This document shows, in pieces, positions 2,925-44,757 of a stretch of DNA of 64,000 nucleotides. Source of the stretch: Clostridia bacterium (lineage in GTDB: Bacteria; Bacillota; Clostridia; Oscillospirales; CAG-272); NCBI GenBank assembly GCA_017408585.1, contig JAFQUJ010000017.1, positions 36,782 through 100,781 on the forward strand. Reading direction: 5' to 3'. Made by a program: the position numbers and the translations under genes. The notes beneath the pieces are model-generated. The model saw only the letters and a list, made by a program, of their open reading frames with translations, searched no databases and had not been told where the DNA came from. Every line of letters begins with the position of its first letter. Position 1 is the first letter of the stretch.

Positions 2925-5900
2925 TTATTTGTTACGCCAATAATACTGGTCGTAACTAGATGTTAAATATTTCGCTGCAGTTGATGCATCTGACAAATAA
3001 TTCAACGAGTAGCTTGGCGAGAAGCCAGACCAGGTTGAGTATTCCCATCCGGATGCATCTTCAAATATTACGCTTTTAAGTGCTGTACAGTATGAGAACG
3101 CATATATTTCGATAGTCTTTACACTAGCCGGAATAGTTATGCTTTCTAGCGCAGAACAGCTAGAGAACGCATTACCTTCTATTGTTTCTAAGACGCTTGG
3201 AAGCGTTATACTCTTAAGCTTGCTGCAACCACTGAAGGCGTATCCTCCTATTTCGGTTACACCACTTGGAATTGTTATGCTTTCAAGCGATGAGCAATGA
3301 TAGAATGTTTGATATCCTATTTTTGTAAGACCACTTGGAAGAGTAACTGTTTTTAATCTGTAACAGCACCAAAATGTAGCGTTTCCCATTGAAATTACGC
3401 TATCTGGTATCAAAACCTCTTCGAGCGAATTACATTCAAGGAACACGCTTTTGCCCAGTTCAGTTACACTGTTTGGAATTTTCACTGTTTTGAGATATTT
3501 AGAATATGCAAACGCCTCGTCTGCAATTATAGCCACGCTGTTTGGTATTTCGAAAGTTGTATCCTGTTTACCAATAGCATATAAAACAAGTGTCTTTCCG
3601 TCCTTGGAATAAAGAGAGCCATCAACTGACTTGTAATTTGCGTTGTCTTTACTTACCACAATGTTTTCAATTGCGGTACACTCCAAAAATGCTTGCTCTC
3701 CTATCTTGGTTAGTCCCTTTCCAATCGTTATGCTCTTAATTGCGTTATTGCCATAGAATGCATATGGCTTTATTTCTGTAATAGCATCCGGTATTACCAG
3801 CTCTGTTATAGTAGCACCGTTTATGTTCAAGCTATGTGAATAATTTTGAGGATTTGACCACTCGTCAAAGAAAGATATATTACACCATTGCTCTAATGTT
3901 CCAAGATAATTTACGATTTCAAGGCGGTTACAATTTATAAATTGTTGTTCTCCTATTTCGGTTACACTAGATGGAATTGTTATGCTTGTAATTCCTGCGC
4001 AATTACTAAATACGCAATCTCCTATTTTGGTTACGCCGTTTGGAATAACAACGCTTGTTATTGAATCGCAATTATTGAAAATATAGTCTTTTATTTCAGT
4101 AATGGAGTTAGGTATCACAAGGTCTGTCAAAAGAACGCCCTTTATACTAAATGTTTCAGCATAATATGTTGGAGTGGAATATTCATTACTAAATGAAATA
4201 TTACACCATTTCTCTAGCGTTCCAAGATAATTGACTGTCGAAATGCTATAGCAGTAATCAAAGGCATCGTTTCCAACTTGGGATACACCATTTCCAATTG
4301 TCACGCTTTCAAGAGACTCACAAGAACGAAAAGCACTATCGCCTATTGTTGTCACACTATCAGGAATTGTTATGCTTGTAAGAGAGTCACAGTCGTAGAA
4401 CGCTGACGAATAGATAAATTTTGTATTCTCATGTATTTTACAAGAGGTAATATTTTCGTCCGTCACATTTAGCAATAGCAAATAAGGATTGGTATCGTTT
4501 CCTAAATATAATGCATTATCATATGCATTGCATTTCATAGCAACGCTATCTGGTAATATGTATTCTCCCATCTCGGTAATGCTACTTGGAATTGTTATTG
4601 TTTCAAGGAGATCGCAGTCATAGAATGCATAGTTTCCTATTTTGGTCACTCCGTCGGAAATTGTTGCGCTTATAAGCGAGGTGCAATCTGAGAACGCATA
4701 TGCACCTATTATTTTCACATTACCCGGAACAACTATGCTTGCAAGTGCAGTACAGTTTTGGAATGCCGATTTTCCAATTGTCGTAACACCATCAGGAATT
4801 GTTATGCTTGTAAGTGCTGTGCAATTATAAAATGCGCTATTGTTAATATACTTTGTATCTTCATGTATTTGACAAGAGGCAATCTTCTTGTCATTTGCGT
4901 TCATGAGCCAAAGGAACGGATTATCTGCGTTTCCAAGATAACTTGCTGTATCATACACATTATATTTAAGTGCGGTACAGTTAGAGAACGCATAATCAGC
5001 TATTGATGTTACGCTATTGGGGATTGTTACATTCTCAAGAGATGTGGCATTTGCAATCGCATATGTTCCTATTGCTGTCACACCTGATGGAATTGTTATC
5101 TTTGTTATGTCGTCCTGATAATAAAATGCATATTTATATATTTCGTAATCTTTACCATTATAGCTATCGGGCAAGGTTATTTCCGTTATGTTGCCCTTGT
5201 ACGCCATGAGATAAATTTTATTATCTCTTGTCCAAAATACATAGTCGTTTATTGTTTTTAATACGCTTTGTTCACTTGATGAGGTGTGTATTATCAAGTC
5301 AGAATCACTTGCTGACGAAATGTCAAGTGAGGTTAAATTGTAAATCTCCACTAACTTATTACAGTTGTTAAACGCATAATCTTCTATTGTAATAACATTA
5401 GACGGAATTGTTACGCTTAAAAGAGAATTACAGTTAGAAAATGCACTATTTCCTATTGTAGTCACACTAGATGGAATTGTTATCTGCGTAAGAGAGCTAC
5501 AATTGGAAAACGCATTAGCGCCTATTGTAATTACGCCTTCTGGAATGCTTATACTTTCAAGTGCGGTACAACTACTAAATACAGCTTTTTCTATTATTGT
5601 AATCTGGCTTGGGATATTTACACTTTTAAGCGAATGGCACGCACTAAATGCGCATTCTCCTATCTCTTTTACATTAGCGCCAAGAGATATCCTTTCAATT
5701 TCCGAGCAATTGCCAAACGCGCCATATGCAAGAGTTCCACCATTAACAGTAACGCTCTTTAATGTGTTTGGAATGAAATAATTATGATAATCTCTCCATT
5801 GATTTGAATAATGTTGTTCCGTTTTTTTTGCTCCGTCAAACTCGTTTGAACCAAAAATATGGCCAAAATTATTTGAATAATAGGAACTAGAGAAATCTTT

Positions 5901-7577: not shown

Positions 7578-7590
7578 TTCTCGCTCCTAC

Positions 7591-7884
7591 TTAATATACA
7601 TTTCTCTTTTTATAGATTTGCGCTTCGTATTCGGGCAATCTTGAAAGTCTTTCGTCGATTGATGCTTGATTTTCGTCAACACAGCCCTTAACTGATGCGT
7701 TAAATCGGTCTATTACCGATACAAATGCTTGAATTGCGCCATGAATGCTTTGGTCAAGGTTACCAATATTAGCATTTAGCTCCGAGGAGCACTTAATGGT
7801 GAGAGCCTCGACCTTGGCTTTGAACTGTTCTATTGCCGATCGAGCGCTTAAAAGCGCGTTATCTGTAACACTTATTTTATCCAT
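7591..7884 (-). CDS. Small helical WXG100/ESAT-6-like protein, 97 aa
   Basis: Size, two amphipathic helices around a central 'NLDQ' turn, and operon context. Confidence 0.55.
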   Translation of the reverse strand: MDKISVTDNALLSARSAIEQFKAKVEALTIKCSSELNANIGNLDQSIHGAIQAFVSVIDRFNASVKGCVDENQASIDERLSRLPEYEAQIYKKRNVY

Positions 7885-7888
7885 TACC

Positions 7889-8389
7889 CTAATCCTGCTC
7901 CTTTAATTCCTTGTATGCCCATTTGAAGAAATGGTGGCTATATTTATGATATAGCTTTCTTATTTTTCTATCGAACAAAACATCATAGATTGTCACTAGC
8001 TTTTTTAGAATACTCCTTTGCTCCTCACCCTTTATGTCGGTGAAAACAAATTCTCTTACTTTCATATAAAGCTCTGTAAAATCGCCGATGCTTGTTTCTC
8101 TGTCATAATTAAGCTCCCACTTTGAGTCTGCGTCTGTTGCCGAGATTGGCTCTACAAACTCGCCGAGGTCGAGCGTATCTATTTTCTGCTGATAAATTTC
8201 AGTCGGTGGCTCGATTTTTTCGATTGATCCGTTTCCCTCGTTTCTTGTCATTTTGCAAACGAGAAATTTATCAACTATGCTTCCGTTATTATCATATCCT
8301 AGTATTGGATAAAGCAGGCTTGATGGAAAGCTTCTGTCGTTTTCAAAAAACGATTTCATTGCCCTGCTTATAATTTCGCGATATTCCAT
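7889..8389 (-). CDS. Hypothetical protein, candidate immunity protein for the upstream effector, 166 aa
   Basis: Starts 6 bp after the effector stop; no signal peptide; role inferred from position only. Confidence 0.5.
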   Translation of the reverse strand: MEYREIISRAMKSFFENDRSFPSSLLYPILGYDNNGSIVDKFLVCKMTRNEGNGSIEKIEPPTEIYQQKIDTLDLGEFVEPISATDADSKWELNYDRETSIGDFTELYMKVREFVFTDIKGEEQRSILKKLVTIYDVLFDRKIRKLYHKYSHHFFKWAYKELKEQD

Positions 8390-8395
8390 TTTTAC

Positions 8396-9529
8396 CTACC
8401 TTATTATCGTTTTTGTTATGTTCATCTCTGCGCCTGTTGGAGCAAGTGCAAATCTCATTACCTCGACGGGAACGAGCCTTGCGCTTGATTCTCCCCTGTC
8501 ACCCGAGTCGCAAACATAAACGCCTGTTATTTCGTTTGTATGGGCATCTCTTTGAATGCTTGTTATAGTGATTGCGTGAAATGCGGGTACAGAGCCATGG
8601 CTTTGATACCATAGCATATTCGCGTCAACAGTAGCGATTACTCCTCGTCCCTGCTCAACATATTCTGCGATTTTCTCAACTGAGCCATATTCTATGTCCG
8701 ACTCAATTCCAAAATGTCTTAAAACCGCTTGTCTATCCTTGGCGTATGTACCACCATTATTTTCAGGTGAGCTATCAATTGTGCACATTGGACGAATTCC
8801 CTTAAATCCAATGATTTTATGCGTTCTTGCGTAATTAACCACCTTTTCCTCGGTGATGTTAACGCCTGCCATACGGAGTATGTTTTCGACGCTTACAAGT
8901 CCGCATGTTCCCTCAAAGCCCTCGACGCCCTCTCCACCACGGCTTACAGGAACGCCTTGGTTTGAGTTTAGCTTTTCACCGGTTTGCTTAGGGGTATTGA
9001 AGGTTTTTACATATCCGTCTCTTTGCCATGTCTGTCTTGTTCTATTTAGCTTTGTAGGGCGTATTCCGTCTGAGATAAATTCGCCCTTTTCAAGCCGATC
9101 TGCCGATTGTGTCGCGCTCGGTGCGCTTGTGCTTGGAGCTGTACTTGTTCTTTTCGGCGGTGTGCTTGCTGATGTTGCACCGCTATTTGCGCTAGCAGTC
9201 ACAGGTGACGATGCGGAATAGGTCGATGCCACAGGAGAAGATGATGCTATACCGATACCCGTTGTACGATCGACAATTTCAAGCGCCTTATCACGAAAAT
9301 ATCGTGGATATGTAGCGCTGATTTCCTCGATAATGGTGTGAATTCTGGTTCTTAGAACCTCAATTTCTCTCATTAAATTGCCAAATGTGTGGTCATCGTC
9401 CCACTCACCTTGCAAATTCACCATGTCTCTACAATAATCATCAAGTATTTGATTTTGACTTTCGCAGTATGCTTCTATTGAATCTGCAACCTCGCCTAGC
9501 ACATCGGGGTCTAATATAAGCTCATCCAT
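8396..9529 (-). CDS. WXG100-like N-terminus + S/T/A/P linker + C39-like (papain-fold) peptidase; candidate secreted effector
   Basis: N-terminus (MDELILDPDVL...GEWDDDHTFG) is paralogous to 10567-10851; putative catalytic residues in GTCGLVS, FHAITIT and VCDSG. Confidence 0.75.
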   Translation of the reverse strand: MDELILDPDVLGEVADSIEAYCESQNQILDDYCRDMVNLQGEWDDDHTFGNLMREIEVLRTRIHTIIEEISATYPRYFRDKALEIVDRTTGIGIASSSPVASTYSASSPVTASANSGATSASTPPKRTSTAPSTSAPSATQSADRLEKGEFISDGIRPTKLNRTRQTWQRDGYVKTFNTPKQTGEKLNSNQGVPVSRGGEGVEGFEGTCGLVSVENILRMAGVNITEEKVVNYARTHKIIGFKGIRPMCTIDSSPENNGGTYAKDRQAVLRHFGIESDIEYGSVEKIAEYVEQGRGVIATVDANMLWYQSHGSVPAFHAITITSIQRDAHTNEITGVYVCDSGDRGESSARLVPVEVMRFALAPTGAEMNITKTIIR

Positions 9530-9598
9530 AGTTTCTCCTAATGATTTATAGCATTGTGGGCAAGCGCCCTTCTCTTACTACTTAGAGTAATGCTTTGT

Positions 9599-10294
9599 TT
9601 ATTTCTTTAATTTTGCAGAGAAATCCTCGCTTTGAAGTCTTGATGGGAAAAATATTGGCTTACTTGCGAGATATTCATTTATTTTTGCGATTAATGCATT
9701 TAATTCCATCGCATTGTACTCAGCCTCCTCTTGCATAAGGCCTAAGTACTTTTTCATTTCATACATACATTCCTGTATTGTGTCAAGTGCGCTTGCTACC
9801 GCGTCCTCCATCTCCTTAAAATAGGTGACGGTTGCTGAGGCGTCGTTTGCGAGGCTACGCGCAAGCTCATACTTTTTTCTATAATGATTGTAGTTATTAG
9901 TCGCCTCTTCTAATCTTCGACGAGCAGCGCTAAGCGCATATTCGTCCACATCAGGCACTGTTTTTGTAGTTGAGTTTCCATCTGAATCGGTAACTGTCAC
10001 CGTTTTGGTTCTGCTAAGAATATAGTCTATTTCTCTTTCGATGCTTTGCATTTCTGCGTAATATTCCTGCATTTGATATTCATATGTTGTCGCCTTTGAG
10101 GACGCCTCGTCATATATTATCTCGGCACGATTGATTTGAATTCTTATCTTTTGCAGATCCGACTCAACATCAAAATACAAGCGCTGAGCCTTGAAAATCA
10201 GCTGATCTGCGATGCTCATGATTACATCGTATGTGTCATCAGTGTGGCTAGCAAATCTTTCAAGCGCTGATAGCTCTGTTTTTATACTTGCCAT
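9599..10294 (-). CDS. Long helical-hairpin/coiled-coil protein, 231 aa (LXG/ESX-partner-like)
   Basis: ORF track 9599-10348; ATG at 10294 has a GGAG RBS and follows the upstream stop; heptad-rich with a central beta-hairpin-like 'TVTVTDSDGNSTTKTV'. Confidence 0.7.
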   Translation of the reverse strand: MASIKTELSALERFASHTDDTYDVIMSIADQLIFKAQRLYFDVESDLQKIRIQINRAEIIYDEASSKATTYEYQMQEYYAEMQSIEREIDYILSRTKTVTVTDSDGNSTTKTVPDVDEYALSAARRRLEEATNNYNHYRKKYELARSLANDASATVTYFKEMEDAVASALDTIQECMYEMKKYLGLMQEEAEYNAMELNALIAKINEYLASKPIFFPSRLQSEDFSAKLKK

Positions 10295-10295
10295 A

Positions 10296-10550
10296 TCACA
10301 ACTCCGCCAATCTTGCGCTGAGCTTGTCGAGCATTTGATCAAACTCACTTTCGCTATAATTTTCCTTTACCAGCTCGTGCATTTCAACCGCAACAAGATT
10401 TTGTTGCCATGTATTAAACGAAAAACGCTCGAAGTTTTCGTGTATAGCCTCGTAGGAGGGAGCGGTTTGGTCCTTCCAAATCGCTCTTAACTCACTTACG
10501 CTATCCTTTAAGTTGAAAATTGACTGGGTAAACTCTCCGTAATTATCCAT
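10296..10550 (-). CDS. WXG100-like protein, 84 aa (W-K-D motif)
   Basis: Helical, 'AIWKDQTA' turn, tight operon packing. Confidence 0.6.
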   Translation of the reverse strand: MDNYGEFTQSIFNLKDSVSELRAIWKDQTAPSYEAIHENFERFSFNTWQQNLVAVEMHELVKENYSESEFDQMLDKLSARLAEL

Positions 10551-10566
10551 ATCTTATCTCTTTAAC

Positions 10567-10851
10567 TTATCCTATATCCTCTGGTCTTGACTCGATTAGT
10601 CTTGCCTTTTCTCTAAAGAATCTTGGGTATTCTCTCTTTATATCGTTCATTATTGATTCAATTCTGCTTTTGAGAGTCCTTACCTCCTCAAGAAGAGGGC
10701 CTATTGTCTGGTCGTCGTCCCACTCACTTTGCAAAGCGCCCATTTTTGAAAGATAATCTGCCATTACCTGTGTTTGAGTTTCGCAATAAAATCCAATATC
10801 GTCCGCAGTTTCATATAGCACTCTCGGGTCCAGCTCTAATATATCGTCCAT
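10567..10851 (-). CDS. WXG100-like protein, 94 aa (W-D-D motif)
   Basis: Central 'SEWDDDQ' at residue ~44; strong AGGAGG RBS. Confidence 0.7.
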   Translation of the reverse strand: MDDILELDPRVLYETADDIGFYCETQTQVMADYLSKMGALQSEWDDDQTIGPLLEEVRTLKSRIESIMNDIKREYPRFFREKARLIESRPEDIG

Positions 10852-10866
10852 ATTATCCCCCTCCTA

Positions 10867-11133
10867 TCAAGTGTTTCTATAATCGTTTATCCATTGGATT
10901 ATTCTTCGACAATAGGTTTCTATTTGCTCCATTTTGTCGCTAACTGTTCTGAGCATGATTTGCATTTCCTCGGATAATTCGAGATACTTTTTTATGGTTG
11001 GATCTTGAAGTCCGGCAAATTTAGCATTAACATCGGAATCAAGAACTCTCATGTTCATTGAAAGATCCTCGGCTGCCTCGTTTGAAAGCTTAATAGCCTC
11101 GTTAGCTGCTCTTTCAGAAATCTTAAATTTCAT
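10867..11133 (-). CDS. WXG100-like protein, 88 aa (L-Q-D turn)
   Basis: Helix-turn-helix pattern with 'GLQDP' at the midpoint; AAGGAG RBS. Confidence 0.6.
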   Translation of the reverse strand: MKFKISERAANEAIKLSNEAAEDLSMNMRVLDSDVNAKFAGLQDPTIKKYLELSEEMQIMLRTVSDKMEQIETYCRRIIQWINDYRNT

Positions 11134-11161
11134 AAAATTCTCCTTGGTGCTCTAAGAGCGT

Positions 11162-11238
11162 TTTATATTTTTATACCGCGTAAGCGTTTGATTTGATCTA
11201 GCTTTTCATTTACTCTGTGTAGGATTTGAGATGCTCCC
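11162..11238 (+). repeat. 77-bp exact direct repeat, copy 1 (copy 2 at 12117-12193)
   Basis: tttatatttttataccgcgtaagcgtttgatttgatctagcttttcatttactctgtgtaggatttgagatgctccc at both positions. Confidence 0.95.
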
Positions 11239-12094
11239 ACCTTTTTATTATTGATTTAATAATCTCTAAGCGTTCATTGTAATCTGCAAAGCCTATTTGA
11301 AGGTAAATGCCATTTCTGCCATAACGAATATCATTAAATAGCGATATTCCTGTTGGAGCATTTTTAAGCTCTTCTGCCCTTTGCAGATCAACATAAAAAC
11401 TCGTTAGCACACTTAAATCAGGGAGAGGAAGGTAGATTTTGCTTCCACATTGGCTAAGCACGGTGGTTCTTGTTATTGGATATTTTATAATGATACTACT
11501 GCTCAACGACATAACCACATTTATTCCAAATCGTCTTCCACACTTAAGTAAGAACTGCAGGCGATCAATTATACAGCTTCTTGTATTTTCATTTTCAAGA
11601 ACAAGATCAACCTCATCAATAACAATAAGAATTCTTGACTTTGCGACATATTGAGAGAGGGTTAGTCCCTGTTCTTTGCATTCCTGACCTCGACGCATAA
11701 TCTCCTCTTCAAGTTCGCAAAGAGCAGACTTGGTCGCGTCCATACCGCGAGCTACAAGTTTAATATGGGGCAAGTGCAGATTTTCATAGCACTCAAATTC
11801 CACGCTTCCCTTAGGATCTAAAAGGTAAACATTTAATTCATTGGGGCTGTATTTATAACATGCACTCATGATAAGAGTGTGAATAAAGTTGCTTTTTCCA
11901 CTTTTTTCTCCACCGAGCACCATCGCGTTCATTTGATTTTCTATCAGATCCAAGGAATGTACTCCCTCGTTTGACATACCAATTGGAATTCTTAATCCCT
12001 CCGACGCTGATATGCTTTCGGTATGCGTATCAATATGTGACAAAAGCGTTTCAACACATACGATATGAGATGCATCAGAACTTGTAAAATCCAT
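11210..12094 (-). CDS. Single-domain FtsK/SpoIIIE-family ATPase, divergent paralogue of the central domain of 12399-15980
   Basis: Walker A GGEKSGKS, Walker B IVIDE; shares 'IMSACYKYSP.ELN.YLLD.K' and 'NDIRYG' with the large ATPase. Confidence 0.8.
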   Translation of the reverse strand: MDFTSSDASHIVCVETLLSHIDTHTESISASEGLRIPIGMSNEGVHSLDLIENQMNAMVLGGEKSGKSNFIHTLIMSACYKYSPNELNVYLLDPKGSVEFECYENLHLPHIKLVARGMDATKSALCELEEEIMRRGQECKEQGLTLSQYVAKSRILIVIDEVDLVLENENTRSCIIDRLQFLLKCGRRFGINVVMSLSSSIIIKYPITRTTVLSQCGSKIYLPLPDLSVLTSFYVDLQRAEELKNAPTGISLFNDIRYGRNGIYLQIGFADYNERLEIIKSIIKRWEHLKSYTE

Positions 12095-35771: not shown

Positions 35772-36268
35772 AATGCAAAATAATTACAACATCAAGACAG
35801 GCGCAGGACGATAGAATTTCGATTTTTGACAATGCGTTTTTTGCCTCGGAGCCTATGCTTGACAATCAATATAACGATATTGACCCAAGCGAGATTGACA
35901 CCATAACCACCTATCTTGACGGTGAAATCACCGTCGAGGGTGACGATGTACGCATCACCTATCACGAGGATAGCGGTAGTGGAATGGAGGGCGTTGACGC
36001 TGTTGTGGCGTTTAAGATAAGCGAGCCACACGAGGTCACGATTACTCGCTCCGGCGAGGTCAACACCATCATGCTGTTTTCACAGGGCGAGAGGACTATT
36101 TCCGTTTATCAAACGCCGTTTATGCCCTTTGAGCTTGGCATTTATGCAAAGCGCGTTGACAACAGAATTTTAAGCGACGGAGTGCTTGAAATTTTCTACA
36201 TTGTTGAAATCAAGGGCGCTTTGGCACAAAAAACAGAATTAAAATTGGAAGTTAAAAAATATGACTGA
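35768..36268 (+). CDS. DUF1934-family beta-barrel protein
   Basis: 'ITY.E', 'R.G.V...M.F..G...S.YQTP' pattern. Confidence 0.7.
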   Translation: MKCKIITTSRQAQDDRISIFDNAFFASEPMLDNQYNDIDPSEIDTITTYLDGEITVEGDDVRITYHEDSGSGMEGVDAVVAFKISEPHEVTITRSGEVNTIMLFSQGERTISVYQTPFMPFELGIYAKRVDNRILSDGVLEIFYIVEIKGALAQKTELKLEVKKYD

Positions 36269-37289
36269 AGCAGAATTTCGCGCAGAGCTATCACAGCTTA
36301 AGGGTGGCTATCTCTTTTACGGTGACGAGGATTATCTTAAATTCTCCTATTCAAAGGAGGTTTGTAAAAGAGTTCTTGATGGCTCGTTTGACGAATTTAA
36401 CCATATTGTAATTTATGGTGAGGACTATTCTCCCGCCTCTCTTTCGCAGGCGATTGCGTCCCTTCCCATGATGGCTGAGCAAAAGCTGGTTGAGCTTCGC
36501 TCACTTGATTTTAAGGCGCTCAAAAAGGACGATTTATCGGCGCTTTCCGAGGCACTTTCCACGCTTGAGGATTGCGACCATACAATACTTATCGTGCGTG
36601 CCGATTCGCATTTATTTGACCCCGGCAGGCCAAAATCGCCAAGCGAGGCGTTTAAGGTATTGACTAAATATCTTACGCCCGTTGAGTTCTCATTCCCACA
36701 GCCCAACAGGCTCGCCTCTTGGATTTTGAGGCACTTTGCCGAGGGCAAGATTTCATTTGATGCCTCGCTTGCGACTTATCTTGTTGAGATTTGCGGTCAC
36801 AGTATGTGGACTCTTTCGTGTGAGATTGAGAAGCTTTGCGCCTACGCAAAGGCTAACGAAATTGTGGAGATTACACAGGAAATCATTGATGATGTGTGCT
36901 GTAAGACCATTGAATATGACGATTTTCAGCTGACAAATATGCTCCTTGAGGGCAGACCGGAGCAGGTGTTTGAAACGCTTCGTCGCCAACGCCTTGCGCA
37001 CGAGCCACCGAATATCATTCTTTTCTCCGTTGTTAAAATGTACACCGAGCTTTATGCGGTTTGTCGTCTTAATATGACGGGTATGACGAAGGGGCAGATT
37101 GCCTCGACGCTCAAAATTCACGAGTTCAAGGTTGGAAAATATTTAAACAAGCTTGCACGCACAACTCCCGCAAGAATTGAGCGCTCGCTCGAGCTTTGTC
37201 GCGATGCGGATATTCAATCCAAGACTGCGCAAAATCTCGGTCAATATGGCGCTCTTGAAAGGTTAATCAGCACATTGTGTGCGCTTTAA
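36261..37289 (+). CDS. holA: DNA polymerase III delta subunit
   Basis: YLFYGDEDYL, FN, SLPMMAEQKLV, EIEKL and ADIQSKT. Confidence 0.88.
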   Translation: MTEAEFRAELSQLKGGYLFYGDEDYLKFSYSKEVCKRVLDGSFDEFNHIVIYGEDYSPASLSQAIASLPMMAEQKLVELRSLDFKALKKDDLSALSEALSTLEDCDHTILIVRADSHLFDPGRPKSPSEAFKVLTKYLTPVEFSFPQPNRLASWILRHFAEGKISFDASLATYLVEICGHSMWTLSCEIEKLCAYAKANEIVEITQEIIDDVCCKTIEYDDFQLTNMLLEGRPEQVFETLRRQRLAHEPPNIILFSVVKMYTELYAVCRLNMTGMTKGQIASTLKIHEFKVGKYLNKLARTTPARIERSLELCRDADIQSKTAQNLGQYGALERLISTLCAL

Positions 37290-37293
37290 GGAC

Positions 37294-37878
37294 ATGAAAA
37301 AAAGAATTAAGTATCCTATAATTGTTGAGGGCAAGTACGACAAAATCAAGCTTTGCTCGCTTTTTGACGCCGATGTCATTGTGACGGGTGGCTTTGCGAT
37401 TTTCTCACACGGTGAGCGTCTTGCGCTTCTGCGCTCCCTTGCCGATAAGGCGGGAAAAATAATTATACTCACCGATTCCGATGGGGGTGGGCATCTCATT
37501 CGCTCTCATATTAAGAGCGCAATTTCGCCCGAAAAAATCATAAATTTATACACTCCCAAGACACAGGGTAAGGAAAAACGAAAAAGAGAGCCCTCTCGCG
37601 AGGGGTATCTTGGAGTTGAGGGAATTGATGCTCAAGTGCTAACGGAGCTTCTTTTGCCATTTTGCGAGGACTCGCTAACAGAGGCTAAAACGCCAATCAC
37701 AAAAGCGGATTTATATGCTCTCGGGCTTAGTGGTCGCCCTGATAGCAAATCTAAGCGAGAGGCGCTTTTAAAAGCGCTCAAGCTCCCCCACGATATGACG
37801 CCAAACGCTATGCTTAGCGCGCTCAATATTCTCTTTTCAAGGGAAGAGATTGAACAAAAAATCAAGGATTTATCATAA
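37294..37878 (+). CDS. rnmV: Ribonuclease M5-like TOPRIM protein with DUF4093-like C-terminus
   Basis: IIVEGKYD, LTDSDGGG, LGVEG and GLSG.PDSK.KRE. Confidence 0.8.
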   Translation: MKKRIKYPIIVEGKYDKIKLCSLFDADVIVTGGFAIFSHGERLALLRSLADKAGKIIILTDSDGGGHLIRSHIKSAISPEKIINLYTPKTQGKEKRKREPSREGYLGVEGIDAQVLTELLLPFCEDSLTEAKTPITKADLYALGLSGRPDSKSKREALLKALKLPHDMTPNAMLSALNILFSREEIEQKIKDLS

Positions 37879-37884
37879 CACATC

Positions 37885-37916
37885 AAAGCAGGCTGTTGAA
37901 ATCAACAGCCTGCTTT
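37885..37916. terminator. Bidirectional intrinsic terminator
   Basis: AAAGCAGGCTGTTGA-AA-TCAACAGCCTGCTTT. Confidence 0.8.
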
Positions 37917-37947
37917 CGTTTTTACACGCCAATCGTATGCGTTTTAT

Positions 37948-38010
37948 AGCTCCTTTTGAAACGGTGCGAGGGTCGCACCCTTGTTTGCTTTTGCTAAGAC
38001 ACAGAACCAT
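37948..38010 (-). repeat. Inter-cassette repeat R1 (terminal copy; RBS with no downstream gene)
   Basis: Minus strand ATGGTTCTGTGTCTTAGCAAAAGCAAACAAGGGTGCGACCCTCGCACCGTTTCAAAAGGAGCT. Confidence 0.9.
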
Positions 38011-38027
38011 TCTTTGTCTGTTCTTGT

Positions 38028-38717
38028 TTATTCAGGCAAATAGATTATAACCTCACAGCTTGAATTGTAAAGCAATGTGTCAAAAACATATTCCTTTTTT
38101 ACAACCTCTATTTTAACGCTTGAGGATTCATTTTTAAATATAGTCTTTGGCACTATCACAATGTCTGAGTAATGCTGTATGGCATCAGAAAAGCCCTGTC
38201 CATGTCTTGAAATCAAATTGTATGTCAGTGTATAACACTCGTTTTCCTTTACGAGATTAGAATAGTATATATCCTCAGAGCGAATATGACCGGACTCACC
38301 CTCTACTACTAAGACATAATTGTTCTCGAATGTTTGCTCTGTTACAGCATCAAAAACACAATCCTCAGCCACTCCACCTAAAAACTCTTCGTAGCTTAAA
38401 AATAACTTTGTAACATAATGATATCTTGATGTCCAATTATCATCGTCAACCAAGCTATGATAGCTACTATGTAGATAGACGACATATGAATTAAAGCTTT
38501 CGGAATTTACTCCCGTCAAGGTTTCCCTTGTTGGATTTTCGTAATTCCATCTTCCTAAAAACAATTCGGAGGAAACAGGCTCAATAAAACTCGATTCCTC
38601 GCTTATGCTCTCTTGGGTGCTCTCACTCGAACTTTCTGTTTGTGTTTCGTTATCACACGACACAAAAGCCCCAAAGCATAGAATCAAAAATAGAATAAGT
38701 GATAGGATTTTTTTCAT
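38028..38717 (-). CDS. Lipoprotein, 229 aa (cassette E), PrcB-C-like mature domain
   Basis: MKKILSLILFLILCFGAFVSC lipobox; paralogous to 38794-39459. Confidence 0.8.
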   Translation of the reverse strand: MKKILSLILFLILCFGAFVSCDNETQTESSSESTQESISEESSFIEPVSSELFLGRWNYENPTRETLTGVNSESFNSYVVYLHSSYHSLVDDDNWTSRYHYVTKLFLSYEEFLGGVAEDCVFDAVTEQTFENNYVLVVEGESGHIRSEDIYYSNLVKENECYTLTYNLISRHGQGFSDAIQHYSDIVIVPKTIFKNESSSVKIEVVKKEYVFDTLLYNSSCEVIIYLPE

Positions 38718-38723
38718 AAAATC

Positions 38724-38787
38724 AGCTCCTTTTGGGAAGGGTGCGAGGATCGCACCCTTGTTTGCTTTTGCTAAGACACAGAACCAT
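38724..38787 (-). repeat. Inter-cassette repeat R2
   Basis: Same core tcgcacccttgtttgcttttgctaagacacagaacc (plus strand). Confidence 0.9.
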
Positions 38788-38793
38788 CGACTG

Positions 38794-39459
38794 TCAGTTC
38801 TGTTCTGTCTGTTCATCACCTATTACATTATGAATTTTAGTATATACCTCGCAAGGACTGCTATATTTTTCGCCTCTAAATATATATTGTTTTTCAATTA
38901 TTTTGATTTCAAGATTCGGATTATCACAAAGCTCCTTAGGTATTATACAAACATCGCAAAAAGGATCGTGCGCATCTGGCGCCTCTGTAAGTATATTGCA
39001 TACTGTGTTATAAGTTATAGTGTAATAGTTATCTTCTTTTTTGAAATCAGTATAGTATATATCAGCATTCCGAATGTGTCCACTAAACCCTCTCACTATG
39101 AGGACAAAATTTTCCTCAAAGGTTTGTTCTGTAACTTCTGTAAGACAATCCTCTCGACCCTCTATTATCCCCTTTTCAAAATCCTCGTAGTCAAAAATGG
39201 CTTTGACATATGAAAACATATGGTAATTATTTTCCAAAACACCTGTTTCATAATACCAGCCTATCCACGATTCATACGCATCAGCAAAGGTATCACGAGT
39301 TACGATGTTTAATGCGGACTCTTCTTTTGCGCTTTCTTCCTTGCTTATGCTCTCTTGGGTGCTCTCGCTCGAACTTTCCGTTTGCGTTTCGTTATCACAC
39401 GACACGAAAGCCCCAAAACATAGAATCAAAAATAGAATAAGTGATAGGATTTTTTTCAT
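38794..39459 (-). CDS. Lipoprotein, 221 aa (cassette D)
   Basis: Same first ~38 aa as cassette E; shares 'VTEQTFE.N.VL', 'SGHIR' and 'IYY'. Confidence 0.85.
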   Translation of the reverse strand: MKKILSLILFLILCFGAFVSCDNETQTESSSESTQESISKEESAKEESALNIVTRDTFADAYESWIGWYYETGVLENNYHMFSYVKAIFDYEDFEKGIIEGREDCLTEVTEQTFEENFVLIVRGFSGHIRNADIYYTDFKKEDNYYTITYNTVCNILTEAPDAHDPFCDVCIIPKELCDNPNLEIKIIEKQYIFRGEKYSSPCEVYTKIHNVIGDEQTEQN

Positions 39460-39465
39460 AAAATC

Positions 39466-39528
39466 AACTCCTTTTGAAATGGCGCGAGGGTCGCACCCTT
39501 GTTTGCTTTTGCTAAGACACAGAACTAT
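39466..39528 (-). repeat. Inter-cassette repeat R3
   Basis: Same core sequence. Confidence 0.9.
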
Positions 39529-39544
39529 CGACTGTCCGTTTCTA

Positions 39545-40090
39545 TTATTCGTAATGCCTTTTTATCGCTCTGTGATGAATTTGATTTATTGATATTGAGT
39601 CAAACTGTTCAGGGGTGTTGCTTTCTGTTTTGAAAACATACACAAGGTCACATTTCGCGTAAGCTTTTTCGCCATCACTCGCGTCAAAGCATATTTCGCC
39701 ATTCTCCAAGTATGCTTTGCGAGAAGCCACGGTTTCAACAGTTACAGTGCATTTGCCGTCTGCAACCTCAACACCACGATATCCTATAGTACCGGGACCC
39801 GCTTTACCGTATGAAATTACGATTATGTAGTTGTAATCAAAGAAATCCTCTGCTACTCGATAATACGAACTTGTTTCTTGAGCGGTTTCCAAAAAGCTCT
39901 CAAGCTGTTCGCGATTTTCTATTAGCTGTGGCTCGTAAAAACCAAACGGTATTTCCGCTTCCGTATGAACCGTTTTGTAGTAAAGATATTCGGAATCATC
40001 GAAGGTATCGGTCTGACTTGTACGGTTATCTTTTACTATCGGTGACAAATTCAAAATAACCGCTAAAATTAAAATCATAATCTTTCTCAT
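39545..40090 (-). CDS. Exported protein, 181 aa (cassette C), distant paralogue of B/D/E
   Basis: Signal-like N-terminus without a lipobox Cys; ATGA overlap with B; 'EDFFDYNYIIVI' resembles 'EKDFEENIVL'. Confidence 0.75.
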   Translation of the reverse strand: MRKIMILILAVILNLSPIVKDNRTSQTDTFDDSEYLYYKTVHTEAEIPFGFYEPQLIENREQLESFLETAQETSSYYRVAEDFFDYNYIIVISYGKAGPGTIGYRGVEVADGKCTVTVETVASRKAYLENGEICFDASDGEKAYAKCDLVYVFKTESNTPEQFDSISINQIHHRAIKRHYE

Positions 40091-40665
40091 TCAATTATCA
40101 CCACCTGTTCCTCGATAAAAGTGCGTTTTATTTGTATTTTTTCCTCTTCGTCAACAGACCTTGTCAGCTCTGATTTTGGAACGAGAATTACCTCGTAATA
40201 TCTTGTAGTAACATTAACTGCGTCAAGATAAATAGCACCATAAACCTTTTCGCCTGTTTTGTATTTGTAATCAAATGCATTAAAGTATCTTGATCTTGAT
40301 TCAATAGTGCTACCCTCGTCATTTGAGGAGAAATTACAATATCCCAAAAATGAATCGCCTGAAGGAGTTATTGTTGAAAAAAGCACTATATTTTCTTCAA
40401 AATCCTTTTCGGTTATATATGATTTTGTGTAGTCATATTCTTCGAAAAGAGCTTGCAATTCAGAATAGTCCTTTATCAAACGACAATCCGCCACAGGAGA
40501 AACAACCAGTGGCTCCTTGTATATTGTTTCAAAGTAATAGTAGTCCACATATTCTATGGCTTTTGCACTCTCACTTGAACTTTCTGTCGGTGTTTCATTA
40601 TCACACGATACGAAAATGCCAAGGCAGAAAACAAGTGTTAAAAGTATTGATAGTAGTTTTTTCAT
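40087..40665 (-). CDS. Lipoprotein, 192 aa (cassette B)
   Basis: MKKLLSILLTLVFCLGIFVSCDNETPTESSSE. Confidence 0.85.
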   Translation of the reverse strand: MKKLLSILLTLVFCLGIFVSCDNETPTESSSESAKAIEYVDYYYFETIYKEPLVVSPVADCRLIKDYSELQALFEEYDYTKSYITEKDFEENIVLFSTITPSGDSFLGYCNFSSNDEGSTIESRSRYFNAFDYKYKTGEKVYGAIYLDAVNVTTRYYEVILVPKSELTRSVDEEEKIQIKRTFIEEQVVIIE

Positions 40666-40671
40666 AAAATC

Positions 40672-40729
40672 AACTCCTTTTGAAGTGGCGCGAGGGTCGC
40701 ACCCTTATTTGCTTTTGCTAAGACACAGA
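40672..40729 (-). repeat. Inter-cassette repeat R4
   Basis: Same core with one substitution (cttatttgc). Confidence 0.9.
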
Positions 40730-40739
40730 GTTGTCCATG

Positions 40740-41636
40740 TCAGTTCCCTATCAGTTTCGTTGTAGCAAATGTTGGATAGAATGTTTTTTCACTTTCATCT
40801 GATAGTTTTAGGTTAATCCACATTCCTGATAATATAGTTATTTCCCCACTCGCCTCATCTTTAAAAATGCTTTGTTCATAAAACGCTTTATCCACAATTT
40901 TAGCTCCATTTGTTTCATATTGCTTTTTTAACTCACTTTCAATGCTTTCACGAAGCTTTGAATTGTCTATCTTATAAAGGTCGTCAAACACTCCGATTTG
41001 ACCTATGGATATTTCTGCAACAATTCCACTATTCGTTATAACTGTATAGAAATAATCATTTGTGTAATATCCTTGCACCTTTTTTACATAAATGAACATT
41101 TCGGCATAGGGCATTTCATTAGTGCCGGGATATTCATAAAGTTTTTCGGAGTGCACCTCATACAAAGAAGTGTCAGTTAGATATCGATTTGCCAATTCTT
41201 GTGCTATAAGCATAAGATCTTCGTTTGGTACATTATTTTTTTCGTCACTATAATTTGAAATTTTCTGCTTGAAGTATTTAAGATTGTCGGTATTTTCAAG
41301 AAATGCAAAGCTAACTCCGGATTCTTTGTTTTCGTAGTAATCTATTTTTGCATTCGTTAGGTTTATTTGATTTGTAGAAATATAGCTCCCATCATATAAC
41401 TTTCCATACACGAGAAGCTGTTTATCTAGCATATTATCCTTTTCGCAAAATACCACTCCTATATTGCAAATATCGTTATCAAATGGCAAAACAACTCCCG
41501 ATGTATCCAAGTGAATTTCTTCGCTTTTATAGAGAATATCCTCGCTTGAGCTTTCTGTCGGTGTTTCATTATCACACGATACGAAAATGCCAAGGCAGAA
41601 AATAAGTGTTAAAAGTATTGCTACTAGCTTTTTCAT
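40740..41636 (-). CDS. Lipoprotein, 298 aa (cassette A); mature domain not visibly related to B-E
   Basis: ATG 41636 with AAGGAG RBS; MKKLVAILLTLIFCLGIFVSCDNETPTESSSE. Confidence 0.85.
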   Translation of the reverse strand: MKKLVAILLTLIFCLGIFVSCDNETPTESSSEDILYKSEEIHLDTSGVVLPFDNDICNIGVVFCEKDNMLDKQLLVYGKLYDGSYISTNQINLTNAKIDYYENKESGVSFAFLENTDNLKYFKQKISNYSDEKNNVPNEDLMLIAQELANRYLTDTSLYEVHSEKLYEYPGTNEMPYAEMFIYVKKVQGYYTNDYFYTVITNSGIVAEISIGQIGVFDDLYKIDNSKLRESIESELKKQYETNGAKIVDKAFYEQSIFKDEASGEITILSGMWINLKLSDESEKTFYPTFATTKLIGN

Positions 41637-41930
41637 AAAATCAGCTCCTTTGTTTATCTCGTTCCTTTCTAATTTCATTTTAGCATACAAATTCATAAAA
41701 TTCCTTAGTGTTCACAATTTTTTCACACAAGGCTTCCTGATTTTTCTGTTTTGCACAAATTTTGATTTTTTTATTGTCCTTTGAAATTATTATTTTTGTG
41801 CAAGATAACGATAATTTCCGCTTTTAATTTTTCTTCTATTTAATAAAACAATGGAAAATGAAAAGTGTGACAAGATTTTTAAAATTTTTTTAGATTTTTT
41901 ATTTTTTCTTGTTTTTAGGCTGAAAAAAGG

Positions 41931-41960
41931 AAAATCCTCTTGCACTCTCAAGAGGATTTT
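41931..41960 (-). terminator. Intrinsic terminator after xylB
   Basis: AAAATCCTCTTG-CACTCT-CAAGAGGATTTT. Confidence 0.75.
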
Positions 41961-41966
41961 TGTTAT

Positions 41967-43439
41967 TTATATTAGCTTATATGCGTCCTTTAGGGCTGGG
42001 TAGAGCACCTTGAAGGCTTGATATTTTTTCTCGTAGGCTTCGACAAGGTCGGGGCTTGGGAGAATGCTATCCTTGATTTTTATAAGTGCTCTTGTGGCGC
42101 TCTCTACGCTATCGTATTCGCCACAGCCGACCATTGCAAGAATTGCTCCACCATAGGCAGGGCCCTCCTCGATTTCGGGGCGACAAATCTCAATGCCGAG
42201 GGCATTTGCGCACACGATACGCCAAATCTCGTTCTTTGCTCCACCACCACAAATTAGGCTTTTCTCGATACATACCCCACTCTTTTTTGCAATTTCGATA
42301 CAATCACGAAGAGCGAAGGTAACTCCCTCCATTACAGCCAGAGTCATTTGCTCTCTTGTGGTATTGGGGCGCATACCGATAAATGCACCTCTTGCATCTA
42401 CATCATTATGAGGGCTTCTTTCACCCATGAGATAAGGTAGAAAATACACATCGTTTTTGCCAAGATACTTATAAAGTCCCTTTTGCTCGCCTGCGTAATC
42501 GTCGCTTTCAAGCACATTCTCCATCCACCATTTATTACATGATGCGGCGCTTAAAATACAGCCCATCAGGTGATATGCTCCACTTGCGTGACAGAAGGAG
42601 TGAAGCGCGTTTGCGCTATCAACTGAGAACTCGTTTTTCGAGATAAACACAGTTCCGCTTGTGCCAAGAGAGATATTACAAGAGCCGTCCTCGACTGTGC
42701 CTGTACCAACTGCGGCAGCGGCATTATCTCCTGCGCCGGCGCATATTACAACGCTCTCGCTAAGTCCTGTCACCCTTGCCATTTGAGGCAAGAGCGTGCC
42801 GATTGGCTCGTATGACTCATAAAGCGTTGGTAGCCATTCACGCTTGACATGGCAAATTTCTATCATTTCATCGCTCCATTTGCGATTTTTCACATCAAGC
42901 AAAAGCATTCCGCTGGCATCGGAATAGTCGGTTGCGTGTACTCCGCTTAGCTTATATGCAAGATAGTCCTTAGGAAGCATAATTTTTGCGATTTTTGCAA
43001 AGTTATCGCTCTCGTTTTGCTCCAGCCAAAGAATTTTTGGTGCTGTGAAGCCTGCAAAGGAAATGTTTGCAGTATATTTTGAGAGCGTTTCCTTTCCAAT
43101 TACCTCGTTTAGATAATCGCTTTGCTCCTGTGTTCTACCATCGTTCCAAAGAATTGCGGGGCGAATTACATTATCGTTTTCGTCAAGAACGACAAGACCG
43201 TGCATCTGTCCACCAAAGGAAATTCCCTTGATTTGTGATTTATCGTAGCCCTGTGTCAGAGCGTCGAGCGCACGAAGGGTGGCGTCCAGCCAATCCTGCG
43301 GATTTTGCTCGCTCCAGCCGTTTCTCGGGTATGCGATTGGGTAGTCGCGACTTACGCTATTTATGATTTTTCCGTCGGCACTCACCAAAAGAAGCTTGAC
43401 TGATGATGTGCCGAGGTCAATTCCAATATAACTGTTCAT
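41967..43439 (-). CDS. xylB: Xylulokinase
   Basis: IGIDLGTSSVK, GQMHG, ILWND, GDNAA, YLMGERSP and GGGA; follows xylA. Confidence 0.93.
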   Translation of the reverse strand: MNSYIGIDLGTSSVKLLLVSADGKIINSVSRDYPIAYPRNGWSEQNPQDWLDATLRALDALTQGYDKSQIKGISFGGQMHGLVVLDENDNVIRPAILWNDGRTQEQSDYLNEVIGKETLSKYTANISFAGFTAPKILWLEQNESDNFAKIAKIMLPKDYLAYKLSGVHATDYSDASGMLLLDVKNRKWSDEMIEICHVKREWLPTLYESYEPIGTLLPQMARVTGLSESVVICAGAGDNAAAAVGTGTVEDGSCNISLGTSGTVFISKNEFSVDSANALHSFCHASGAYHLMGCILSAASCNKWWMENVLESDDYAGEQKGLYKYLGKNDVYFLPYLMGERSPHNDVDARGAFIGMRPNTTREQMTLAVMEGVTFALRDCIEIAKKSGVCIEKSLICGGGAKNEIWRIVCANALGIEICRPEIEEGPAYGGAILAMVGCGEYDSVESATRALIKIKDSILPSPDLVEAYEKKYQAFKVLYPALKDAYKLI

Positions 43440-43440
43440 A

Positions 43441-44757
43441 TTAACCAAATAGTATGCTATTTACGATTGCCTCGAGGCTCTCCTGCTTTCCACTACCCGG
43501 AAGCTCACAAGTGCCTCTGTCGCACGCATACTGTGCAATTTCCTCGAGCGTTGCACCCTCGCTCATGATTTTTTGACCGATTTCGGTGCTTGTATAGCTT
43601 GAATATCTTTTTTCGATAAAGCCATCAATCCTGCCGTCCTCGATTAGCTCCGCTGCCTTGATAAGACCAAGAGCAAAGGTATCCATACCGAGAATGAACG
43701 CCTCAAACATATCCTCGTAGGTGTATGATGGGCGACGGTTCTTAGCGTCAAAGTTAAAGCCACCTGTGAGTCCGCCCGCCTTGAGAACCTCGTACATACA
43801 CATAGTTGCAGTATAAACATCGAATGGGAACTCGTCGGTATCCCAGCCGAGAAGCATATCGCCTTGGTTTGCGTCGATTGAGCCGAGCATTCCGTTAATT
43901 GCGCTAACTCTTAGGTCGTGCTGGAAGGTGTGACCTGCAAGTGTTGCGTGGTTTGCCTCAATGTTCATTTTGAAGTCCTTATCAAGACCATGCGCCTTCA
44001 AAAAGCCGATTGCGGTTGCAGCGTCAAAATCGTATTGATGCTTCATTGGCTCTTTCGGCTTAGGCTCAATGTAGAAATCACCTGTAAAGCCAATCTTGCG
44101 TCCGTATTCAACTGCCATTTTCATTAGGCGTGCGATATTGTCCTGCTCAAACGCCATATCGGTATTGAGAAGGGTTTCGTAGCCCTCTCGTCCACCCCAA
44201 AACACATATCCTCGTCCACCGAGCTTTACTGTTAGCTCGAGCGCCTTTTTAACCTGTGCGCAAGCAAAGGCGAAAACCTCTGCGCTATTTGACGAGCCTG
44301 CGCCATTTACAAAGCGAGGATTTGAGAACATATTAGCAGTTCCCCAAAGGCACTTAATGTCTGTGCCCTCCATCTTTTCGAGAATGTAATCTGTTATCTC
44401 GTCAAGACGGCGATTTGTTTCGTTGATGTCCTGTGCCTCAGGAACGATATCAACATCGTGGAAGCAGAAATATTTGATGCCGAGCTTCTGCATAAACTCA
44501 AATCCTGCATCAACCTTAGCCTTAGCGTGCTCCATTGTGCCATACTCTTGTCCAAAGGACTTGTCGGCAACTCCACGACCGAACATATCTGTTCCCTCAG
44601 CGCAAAGATTGTGCCACCAAGCCATAGCGAATGGTAGGTGCTCGCTCATTTTTTTGCCGAAAATTACTCTGTCGGCATCGTAATACTTGAAGGCAAGAGG
44701 GTTTTTGCTCTTTGAGCCCTCGTATTTAATTTGTGGGATATTTTTGAAAATTTCCAT
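43441..44757 (-). CDS. xylA: Xylose isomerase (class II)
   Basis: [26 protein letters not shown] and WDTD. Confidence 0.97.

Follow-up and report, generated by a model that had tools for sequence, protein, structure and literature searches.

A REP-like hairpin element at the unit borders of lipoprotein, membrane-protein and Rhs arrays in a Clostridia genome

How does a bacterial genome come to hold a row of lipoprotein genes in which every gene unit ends with a copy of the same small repeat, the last copy standing before a terminator with no gene of its own? The question is raised by a five-gene array (g1 to g5) on the minus strand of a 64,000-nt stretch of DNA from a Clostridia bacterium (contig JAFQUJ010000017.1, positions 36,782 to 100,781), called here the window, which lies on contig C12 of an assembly of 1.48 Mb in 20 contigs, 69% complete. 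An initial annotation, made from the letters of the window, likened the array to an integron and offered two explanations for the repeat: a recombination site served in trans, or an RNA processing or translation element. The repeat is more general than that annotation recognised, a composite element at gene junctions whose basis is a REP-like (repetitive extragenic palindromic) hairpin motif of gut Clostridia. As to its role we incline, with about even confidence, to a transcribed REP-like hairpin module at cassette boundaries, which would punctuate the operon mRNA and whose repeats would also drive homologous shuffling of the cassettes.

A search for repeats in the window returned a single family of four copies of 73 nt (37950-38022, 38727-38799, 39468-39540 and 40674-40746), the number first reported, all co-oriented on the coding, minus strand. 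Of the three spacings given at first, 1206 was exact, and 776 and 742 were measured as 777 and 741. Read along the coding strand, each repeat begins with about 20 variable nt with or after a stop codon, passes through a 22-nt core, TCTGTGTCTTAGCAAAAGCAAA, continues with (C/T)AAGG and a hairpin (hp2), and ends with a short spacer, AAAAGGAG, 8 nt and an ATG. The core had been called invariant, and it is indeed exact in all four window copies, each of which also carries the announced hp2, GGTGCGA-(C/T)CC-TCGC(A/G)CC, and an AAGGAG ribosome-binding site; the reversed core pattern, run as a control, has no match in the whole genome. Upstream lies another hairpin (hp1), with the apical sequence GGGACGGUUCU. 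Measured from TTCTGTGTCT, the stop codon of the upstream gene begins 12-24 nt ahead in the four window copies, and the ATG of the next gene stands 65-66 nt past it in the three internal ones. The conserved unit is longer than the roughly 60 bp first estimated: it covers about 190 nt, starting at hp1 and taking in the signal peptide and a TESSSE linker.

In coding order, junction element A (40674-40742, minus strand, like the other three) comprises hp1 at 40722-40741, which overlaps the g1 stop codon at 40740-40742, the core at 40708-40729, hp2 at 40687-40703 and the Shine-Dalgarno site at 40674-40679. Element B (39468-39540) has its core at 39502-39523, its Shine-Dalgarno site at 39468-39473 and, at 39481-39497, an hp2 with a U.G wobble in the sense RNA. 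In element C (38726-38807) the hp1 region extends to 38807 and includes the g4 stop codon at 38794-38796, and is followed by the core at 38761-38782, a 10-bp hp2 at 38737-38759 and the Shine-Dalgarno site at 38726-38731. Element D (37950-38023) is the 'empty' terminal copy, with hp1 at 38006-38023, the core at 37984-38005, hp2 at 37963-37979 and a Shine-Dalgarno remnant at 37950-37955; as had been noticed, it retains a ribosome-binding site, AAAAGGAGCT, and no open reading frame (ORF) lies between it and a bidirectional intrinsic terminator at 37885-37916, found by a terminator scan and shared with a convergent rnmV-like gene. The observation that the first gene possesses only the ribosome-binding portion of the repeat also holds, since in the alignment the g1 leader has AAAGGAGCTGATTTTATG alone, the segment from Shine-Dalgarno site to ATG, in common with the repeats. 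The units thus read as g1 with A, g2-g3 with B, g4 with C and g5 with D, g2 and g3 forming one unit between sites A and B.

The idea that the repeat might occur only here fails, for it is present at four other loci of this genome and at two more in a diverged form. The assembly holds nine copies of the core at five loci (the window and contigs C19, C1, C7 and C10), seven exact and two with one change. The five copies of this subfamily 1 outside the window are two internal ones in a three-lipoprotein array on C19 and the terminal ones behind the C1, C7 and C10 arrays, each of these three preceding a terminator; decayed copies stand after the last C19 gene and inside the C7 array. A profile of the nine copies recovered seven more of a diverged subfamily, at positions 40782, 42403 and 44222 of C2 and 101722, 101000, 99771 and 97983 of C11, which have in common (A)GACAG..GGACG(G/A)TTCTGTGTCT, an A-rich stretch and ATTCAAAA, and whose hp2 is GGGGTAG-GAAA-CTACCCC or, once, GGAGCAGGAA-TT-TCCTGCTCC. 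On C2 (L023 = G000 C2:33001-47000; 875-11315), the diverged element ends each unit of an Rhs polymorphic-toxin locus made of a 2155-aa RHS-repeat protein (Pfam E 5.8e-25), a small membrane protein and two orphan units, each consisting of a core fragment that carries a toxin C-terminus (in one case including a GIY-YIG domain) and the gene that follows. On C11 (L024 = G000 C11:95501-104500; 2393-6236), six small genes, mostly for predicted membrane proteins and one for a DUF3997 lipoprotein, form an array with four diverged copies, each closing a gene; the ORF ahead of it is presumably tyrS, to judge from its sequence. About 45 nt of the 5' border that the Rhs orphans have on C2 persist at one C11 junction. 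Across the genome, all 17 copies follow an ORF of 107-319 aa on the same strand, whose stop codon starts -37 to +16 from TTCTGTGTCT, and in the five internal copies of subfamily 1 the next ATG is always at +65 or +66.

Outside this genome the exact core 20-mer has one match each in the metagenome and species-genome collections: the former lies in an unrelated sequence that lacks the rest of the element, and the latter is in a Chlamydiae metagenome-assembled genome. Allowing up to two mismatches, the core gave two single matches in 300 genomes of the family, fewer than the approximately 14 of the reversed control and hence at chance level.

What kind of constraint, then, acts on the element? 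The conserved hp1 box of 25 nt, AAGACAGGGGACGGTTCTGTGTCTT, folds as ((((((.((((...)))).)))))) with -8.9 kcal/mol when read as sense and -3.0 as antisense, the sense form being the stabler because the inner stem uses conserved G.U pairs; this holds in 12 of 15 genome copies. For the covariation analysis that the initial annotation had proposed, 80 of 92 profile matches were aligned as distinct copies, after removal of four with one-base insertions, seven truncated or tandem partial copies and one probable chance match in coding sequence. Paired cells amount to 93.9%, and the 15 double-change cells compare with 3.7 +/- 1.7 in shuffles, none of 500 reaching the observed number and slid controls being lower, a count that is not a probability because the copies were gathered with a profile derived from exact matches and include related ones. 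The compensatory changes, AU to GC and GC to CG, fall in the three outer pairs, so that the outer stem of hp1 does covary. For hp2, it is the shape that is kept, with three stems in one genome (GGTGCGA/TCGCACC, GGGGTAG-GAAA-CTACCCC and GGAGCAGGAA/TTCCTGCTCC) and further ones in relatives; GAAA loops cap hp2 in diverged copies and in two relatives. In four variant copies (A and B sharing one substitution, C19a and C19b each with its own), the change gives G.U in the sense hairpin and C.A in the antisense one, and the sense hairpin is the stabler in all four. Finally, over the five internal junctions the mean pairwise identity is about 0.3 upstream of the element, 0.88-0.94 across box, core and 5' arm of hp2, 0.91 from Shine-Dalgarno site to ATG, about 0.7 in the signal-peptide codons and 0.2-0.4 in the gene bodies; a non-coding 40-mer more conserved than the coding sequence beside it is under a constraint of its own. 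Together, the sense-strand stability of both hairpins, the hp2 shape realized by unrelated stems and the covariation of hp1 make the RNA element the better supported of the two explanations first offered.

Two side observations concern the reading of the box. In three otherwise unrelated ORFs it is read in frame as a C-terminal tail (..TEDDSVSEQ*, ..TEDGSVSE* and ..GSVSPK*, at L023:9401-9436, at L024:2451-2486 and in the 245-aa ORF of L024 at 3256-3993), and in the window copies a TAG within the invariant core is the stop of that reading frame. Readings of the box as an ECF-type or sigma-54-type promoter were discarded by eye for misfit of the spacing.

The same region admits an antisense role, in which hp2 and the T-rich complement of the core would end plus-strand transcripts, or in which a small antisense RNA starting in the signal-peptide codons would cover the Shine-Dalgarno site and ATG of each gene. 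An A-tract precedes hp2 and gives it the look of a plus-strand terminator: the sense tract ahead of hp2 is A-rich (6-8 of 10) in all 13 copies, a consensus scan scores the sites as terminators for the plus strand alone, and weak plus-strand promoter-like hexamers (ACGACA-16-TAGAAT) occur in the signal-peptide region of g4 and g5. These promoter matches, however, score 9/12 and appear at chance frequency (23 found against 14.6 expected), and the hp2 substitutions weaken the antisense hairpin in four of eight subfamily-1 copies (-4.5 to -7.6 against -7.3 to -9.5 kcal/mol). The sense strand is also the one favoured by the GAAA loops and by an hp1 rich in G.U pairs, and a T-tract offers no explanation for invariance at 22 of 22 positions. 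We therefore consider an antisense terminator or RNA quite unlikely.

Returning to the sense-strand punctuation module, the mechanism we propose would work as follows. A local derivative of a 25-nt hairpin motif of the gut Clostridia order (AAGACA-G-GGGA-CGG-UUCU-G-UGUCUU), hp1 starts in or just after the stop codon; a ribosome terminating on the upstream gene would have to melt it. An A-rich linker, probably single-stranded, separates it from hp2, a terminator-type GC hairpin without its former U-tract, and within arrays a Shine-Dalgarno site follows, 8 nt ahead of the next ATG. Transcription through the sites being assumed, the two hairpins would punctuate the polycistronic mRNA and protect or define the 3' end of each cistron; they may also attenuate transcription or direct processing within the A-rich linker, while leaving the next ribosome-binding site open. 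At the DNA level, the junction module of about 190 nt (element plus signal-peptide codons) is the only homology between genes that are otherwise old or unrelated, and RecA-type recombination and gene conversion at these modules could multiply gene units, remove them or swap them among five or more loci and from strain to strain. Such homologous exchange would give the array its integron-like look with no integrase involved.

Several points weigh against this proposal, besides the relatedness of copies in the covariation sample. In the window, hp2 lacks a sense U-tract, with 0-3 U in the 10 nt that follow, and thus departs from the usual definition of an intrinsic terminator as hairpin plus U-tract, which some terminal copies of the diverged subfamily do carry; the antisense side of hp2 has 6-8 U in 10 nt in every one of 13 copies, so the A-tract would suit an antisense terminator just as well. 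That as many as 40 nt, with just one of the two hp2 arms among them, are so extremely invariant suggests a partner specific for the sequence, which the proposal does not name. In relatives the box is only weakly biased toward ORF ends, with 27 of 59 for the same strand and 16 of 49 for the opposite one. The Logan contigs of public runs break at every repeat, so that the order of cassettes in other strains, or circles, cannot be read from them, and in a genome 69% complete the absence of a recombinase or transposase is not proof of absence.

The proposed exchange by homology can be compared with the pattern of similarity among the genes. Two cargo families were distinguished by all-vs-all blastp, alpha (g4, g5 and C7_g4, 37-41% identical) and beta (g2, g3, C1_g2, C7_g3, C19_g2 and C19_g3, 22-38% identical), and g1 and C19_g1 have only a 32-aa signal module in common with the rest. 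The variants at the junctions are mutually incompatible: site B resembles C upstream and in the signal peptide, and A in the 3' arm of hp2 and after the Shine-Dalgarno site. Likewise, the first 240 nt of g5 are 90-95% identical to g4 and its body 40-60%, and its last 100 nt or so with the site are 88-100% identical to C7_g4 on contig C7. A mosaic of this kind is the hallmark of gene conversion whose tracts end at varying points, and the patchwork of variants points to gene conversion rather than to a single fixed crossover point.

Do strains differ in what they carry? The initial annotation had asked for this comparison, and fixed gene content would have spoken for plain duplication; in fact another strain has a different gene behind site A. 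Parts of the locus are held by 20 rows of public runs from nine studies. In run X5, a contig of 1382 nt leads out of g1, crosses site A and continues for 580 nt that do not resemble g2 and open with SSSEKEKIT codons, as in the paralogue C19_g1. In run X3, a piece of g2 differs at 44 of 692 positions (about 6%), against 4 of 878, 13 of 619 and 8 of 575 elsewhere (0.5-2%). Many contig 'joints' are short repeat-module contigs that also fit paralogous loci and are uninformative on order or circles; the C19 paralogue has a 3' end that matches the loose ends at 38019 and 39520, and these may derive from that locus. X5 gives no cover of 39582-40437 (g2-g3) and X10 hardly any, g4 too being thinly covered in X10; as no contig spans these gaps, this was not counted as evidence. 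The chromosomal setting was compared in eight stretches fetched from the same genus, all of which retain holA-rnmV; within about 9 kb none has a homologue of xylB, the array or the lipoproteins, so no empty-site comparison is possible.

The hp1 box reaches well beyond this genome. Among 400 other genomes of the family, 16 contain its 15-mer GACGRTTCTGTGTCT, with up to seven copies, and about 12 of these have the full box; the reversed 15-mer has no match in 401 genomes. Four of the 16 (L032, L043, L044 and L045) lack the upstream half of the box, lie in coding sequence and look like chance matches. A 17-mer, GGGACGGTTCTGTGTCT, occurs in 5 of 143 genomes from four other families of the order, and has no match in 2.9 million viral contigs. 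A covariance-model search of Rfam (cmscan, E-value mode) with window positions 36000-43500 and eight loci of relatives gave only sub-threshold miRNA-type matches to long hairpins. In relatives the box takes three forms: a near-perfect palindrome of box, 6-30 nt and inverted box; a box with an unrelated GC hairpin behind it, which has a GAAA loop in two relatives; and inverted boxes around single small genes or conserved segments of 150-190 nt. Many copies lie at contig ends. A Pfam scan covered 23 of the 24 ORFs found ahead of boxes in relatives, one of 88 aa being left out, and gave a family for 11; among these preceding ORFs are housekeeping ones (aldolase, uridine kinase, HIT, ABC transporter) and others (Barstar, GIY-YIG, an Rhs-CT-like ORF, lipoproteins and an RDD protein). 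Because the box follows housekeeping and accessory genes alike and often forms a long intergenic palindrome, its behaviour is REP-like.

As side observations, at L061 (G118:C126) and L059 (G378:C6), from two other genera, the inverted 25-nt boxes flank conserved segments of 150-190 nt directly upstream of genes for small membrane proteins, a layout that resembles invertible promoter switches. At L048, L054 and L036 there are tandem partial boxes, for example AAGACAGGGGACGGTTCT two or three times ahead of a full copy, which suggests slippage or repeated insertion at the box.

REP-like behaviour could also mean a selfish element, of the REP type or akin to miniature inverted-repeat transposable elements, that has no host function and spreads through some transposase or by hitch-hiking, the window copies having merely been duplicated together with the genes. 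Its dispersed, multi-copy and often palindromic nature, the tandem partial boxes and contig-end copies in relatives, and its presence after unrelated housekeeping and accessory genes agree with this. We nonetheless judge it rather unlikely, since all 17 genome copies are co-oriented with a gene and abut its end, the core outdoes the neighbouring coding sequence in conservation and the Shine-Dalgarno spacing is fixed. No transposase partner was found either: PF01797 (Y1 transposase) has no match in this genome and weak ones in two of four relatives, and the viral contigs hold no copy of the 17-mer.

Could the element instead be a site for a recombinase encoded elsewhere, as the initial annotation contemplated? 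In such an integron- or shufflon-like system, a tyrosine recombinase or an HUH enzyme would recognise hp1 folded on one strand of the DNA, and would excise and insert units of gene plus site. Much of the layout invites this: the number of sites equals that of units, with a terminal copy in the window and on C1, C7 and C10 and a decayed one on C19; the element ends Rhs cassettes of toxin C-terminus and immunity gene as well as every gene in an array for small membrane proteins; the strand-asymmetric hairpin has a conserved apex and a covarying stem, like attC or REP-type single-stranded DNA sites; inverted pairs of boxes in relatives flank single small genes or segments of 150-190 nt; and the array is a low-GC island whose cargo differs between strains. 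Immunity arrays linked to a recombinase and punctuated by intergenic repeats have a precedent in rAID-1, as described in 10.1101/471110. The enzyme is harder to place. As reported at first, no recombinase lies in the window, and PF00589 has no match on its contig; in the whole assembly the family matches two genes (C1:3660-4673 and C4:58028-59113), one Xer-like and the other a phage-type integrase, the one on C1 being 22 kb from the C1 array. The suggested linkage of other copies to a recombinase was not borne out, as none stands beside any of the seven loci, and no Y1 transposase was found in the genome, with weak matches in two of four relatives. Moreover, the boundaries of similarity vary by pair, and the patchwork of variants fits gene conversion better; the box of subfamily 1 has a degenerate left half, the strongest conservation lying outside it; and no circular or reordered junction is readable from the contigs. 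Recombination in trans is, in our estimate, unlikely.

The array itself is a low-GC island (30-40% GC against 45-47% in the flanks) set between the convergent rnmV-like Toprim gene (Pfam) and an upstream 493-aa ORF, which we take to be xylulokinase from its sequence. Its genes were taken from the ORF list and all lie on the minus strand. The first, g1 (40740-41636), encodes a lipoprotein of 298 aa that resembles other cargo in its first 32 aa only (signal peptide and linker; all-vs-all blastp) and has just a sub-threshold Pfam match to DUF4901 (E 0.0077). The beta-family lipoprotein g2 (40087-40665, 192 aa), for which a protein atlas gave a PrcB_C-like lead only, overlaps by ATGA with g3 (39545-40090, 181 aa), a distant paralogue whose signal peptide has no lipobox Cys. 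The lipoproteins g4 (38794-39459, 221 aa) and g5 (38028-38717, 229 aa) belong to family alpha. No window cargo protein matches a Pfam family above cut-off. Signal peptides of the lipoprotein type ending ..VSC are present in g1, g2, g4 and g5, whose starts combine a near-identical signal peptide with the linker C-D-N-E-T-x-T-E-S-S-S-E.

In front of g1 lies an AT-rich promoter or leader module of about 320 nt (41637-41960, minus strand). By blastn, copies 88-94% identical to it precede the arrays at C1:26398-26694, C7:80917-81173 and C19:78621-78746, and partial ones were found at C10:11961-12032 and at C2:33584-33699, upstream of the 2155-aa Rhs toxin gene; its repetition before these loci suggests that they have one regulatory unit in common. 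Of the promoter-like matches in this region, the best is a different one (TTTACA-16-TATAAT, 11/12, window 38044-38071, minus strand), inside the 3' end of g5; it points toward the 'empty' site D and the terminator and could yield an RNA of about 150 nt from the terminal element, and its C7 paralogue has a weaker -10. The terminators that close the arrays of the window, C19 (about 81640) and C1 (about 30150) are homologous, with compensatory pairs (GGCTG/CAGCC and GACTG/CAGTC). Repeated leaders and homologous terminators at three loci indicate that whole loci were duplicated, and this, with the paralogue pairs g4/g5 and g2/g3, is what plain tandem duplication would lead one to expect, the repeats being neutral leftovers of gene duplication with no role of their own. 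That explanation is already disfavoured and we find it very improbable: g1 and C19_g1 share nothing with the other genes but the 32-aa signal module, the core is invariant although the adjoining synonymous sites have diverged, the diverged subfamily retains the architecture with another stem, and the box is conserved, with covariation, across families of the order.

The interest of the element is that one small structured sequence marks the 3' border of units in lipoprotein, small-membrane-protein and Rhs toxin-immunity arrays, in bacteria for which the ways of diversifying surface and antagonism genes are poorly known. Its hairpin core is conserved over several families of an order and absent from Rfam. 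Should the RNA reading be true, it would be a cis-element of a new and widespread kind that punctuates operons in uncultured anaerobes; should the DNA reading be true, a cassette system of a new type. A bolder version, to which we give little credence, would make hp1 the strand-specific recognition hairpin of a recombinase acting in trans and the arrays a Gram-positive counterpart of integrons and rAID; it would imply a capture-and-shuffle system for cassettes in gut Clostridia, a phylum with no complete integrons according to a survey (10.1101/030866). With either reading, the 25-nt motif is a searchable handle for strain-variable cassette arrays in metagenomes.

How does the element compare with known systems? 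Arrays of Rhs orphan cassettes are explained by a C-terminal displacement model, with homology in the rhs core at the 5' border. The C2 locus is alike in having an RHS-repeat gene, two orphan units of core fragment, toxin C-terminus and immunity gene, and conserved borders that allow recombination; we know of no description of Rhs arrays that includes a structured 3'-border element per unit, found also in non-toxin arrays. REP elements and bacterial interspersed mosaic elements (BIMEs) are found in Enterobacteria and pseudomonads in hundreds of copies with an associated Y1 transposase (REP-associated tyrosine transposase, RAYT), and their roles include stabilisation of mRNA 3' ends and attenuation. 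Here too there is a short, imperfect, conserved palindrome, extragenic, at gene ends and between cistrons, lineage-specific and occurring in single, inverted-pair and clustered forms, with hp1 within the ribosome footprint of the stop codon. It differs in numbering tens of copies per genome rather than hundreds (17 in 1.48 Mb here), with no RAYT gene found by PF01797, and in forming a composite unit of hp1, A-rich core, second hairpin and Shine-Dalgarno site tied to particular gene families. A REP near a stop codon can stall ribosomes, as stated in the introduction of PMC12306157.

The rAID-1 systems of Bacteroidales are recombinase-linked immunity arrays with intergenic repeats, defined by a 5' gene for a XerD-like recombinase (10.1101/471110). 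Our array is alike in its co-directional small accessory genes (at least two, of low GC), with GC below that of the flanks and repetitive intergenic sequences, and in the link to toxins and immunity, the same element ending Rhs toxin-immunity cassettes. It differs in having no recombinase gene at its 5' side, where the neighbour is the 493-aa ORF, in its phylum and in its unrelated repeat. As for the cargo, the window lipoproteins fall into no recognised immunity family, the PrcB_C-like lead being the only one from the atlas.

The likeness to integrons proposed at the outset extends to the gene-plus-site units, n sites for n units and the 'empty' last site, and stops short of membership. An attC site is an imperfect palindrome with R''(RYYYAAC)-L''...L'-R'(GTTRRRY) boxes and extrahelical bases. 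Alignments inspected by eye against this consensus show no such boxes, so the element has neither R''/L''-L'/R' architecture nor GTT/AAC ends, as the initial annotation had noted; it is also accompanied by no attI and no IntI beside the array, the latter of which may be missing too in attC-site clusters that have no integron-integrase (CALINs). By these defining features, read in the sequence, the array and its repeat are not an integron, and the survey by Cury et al. 2016 (10.1101/030866) found complete integrons absent from all Firmicutes genomes. In other respects the four co-oriented promoterless units with four sites and one leader on the minus strand match what that survey describes: a promoter-proximal leader followed by promoterless gene-plus-site units, one site per unit including the last, a folded strand-asymmetric site overlapping gene ends, and sites more similar within a genome than between genomes. 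The element here differs further in bearing the Shine-Dalgarno site of the next gene and in its cargo, mostly paralogous lipoproteins with one homogenised signal-peptide module, and its patchwork of variants points to homologous rather than site-specific exchange.

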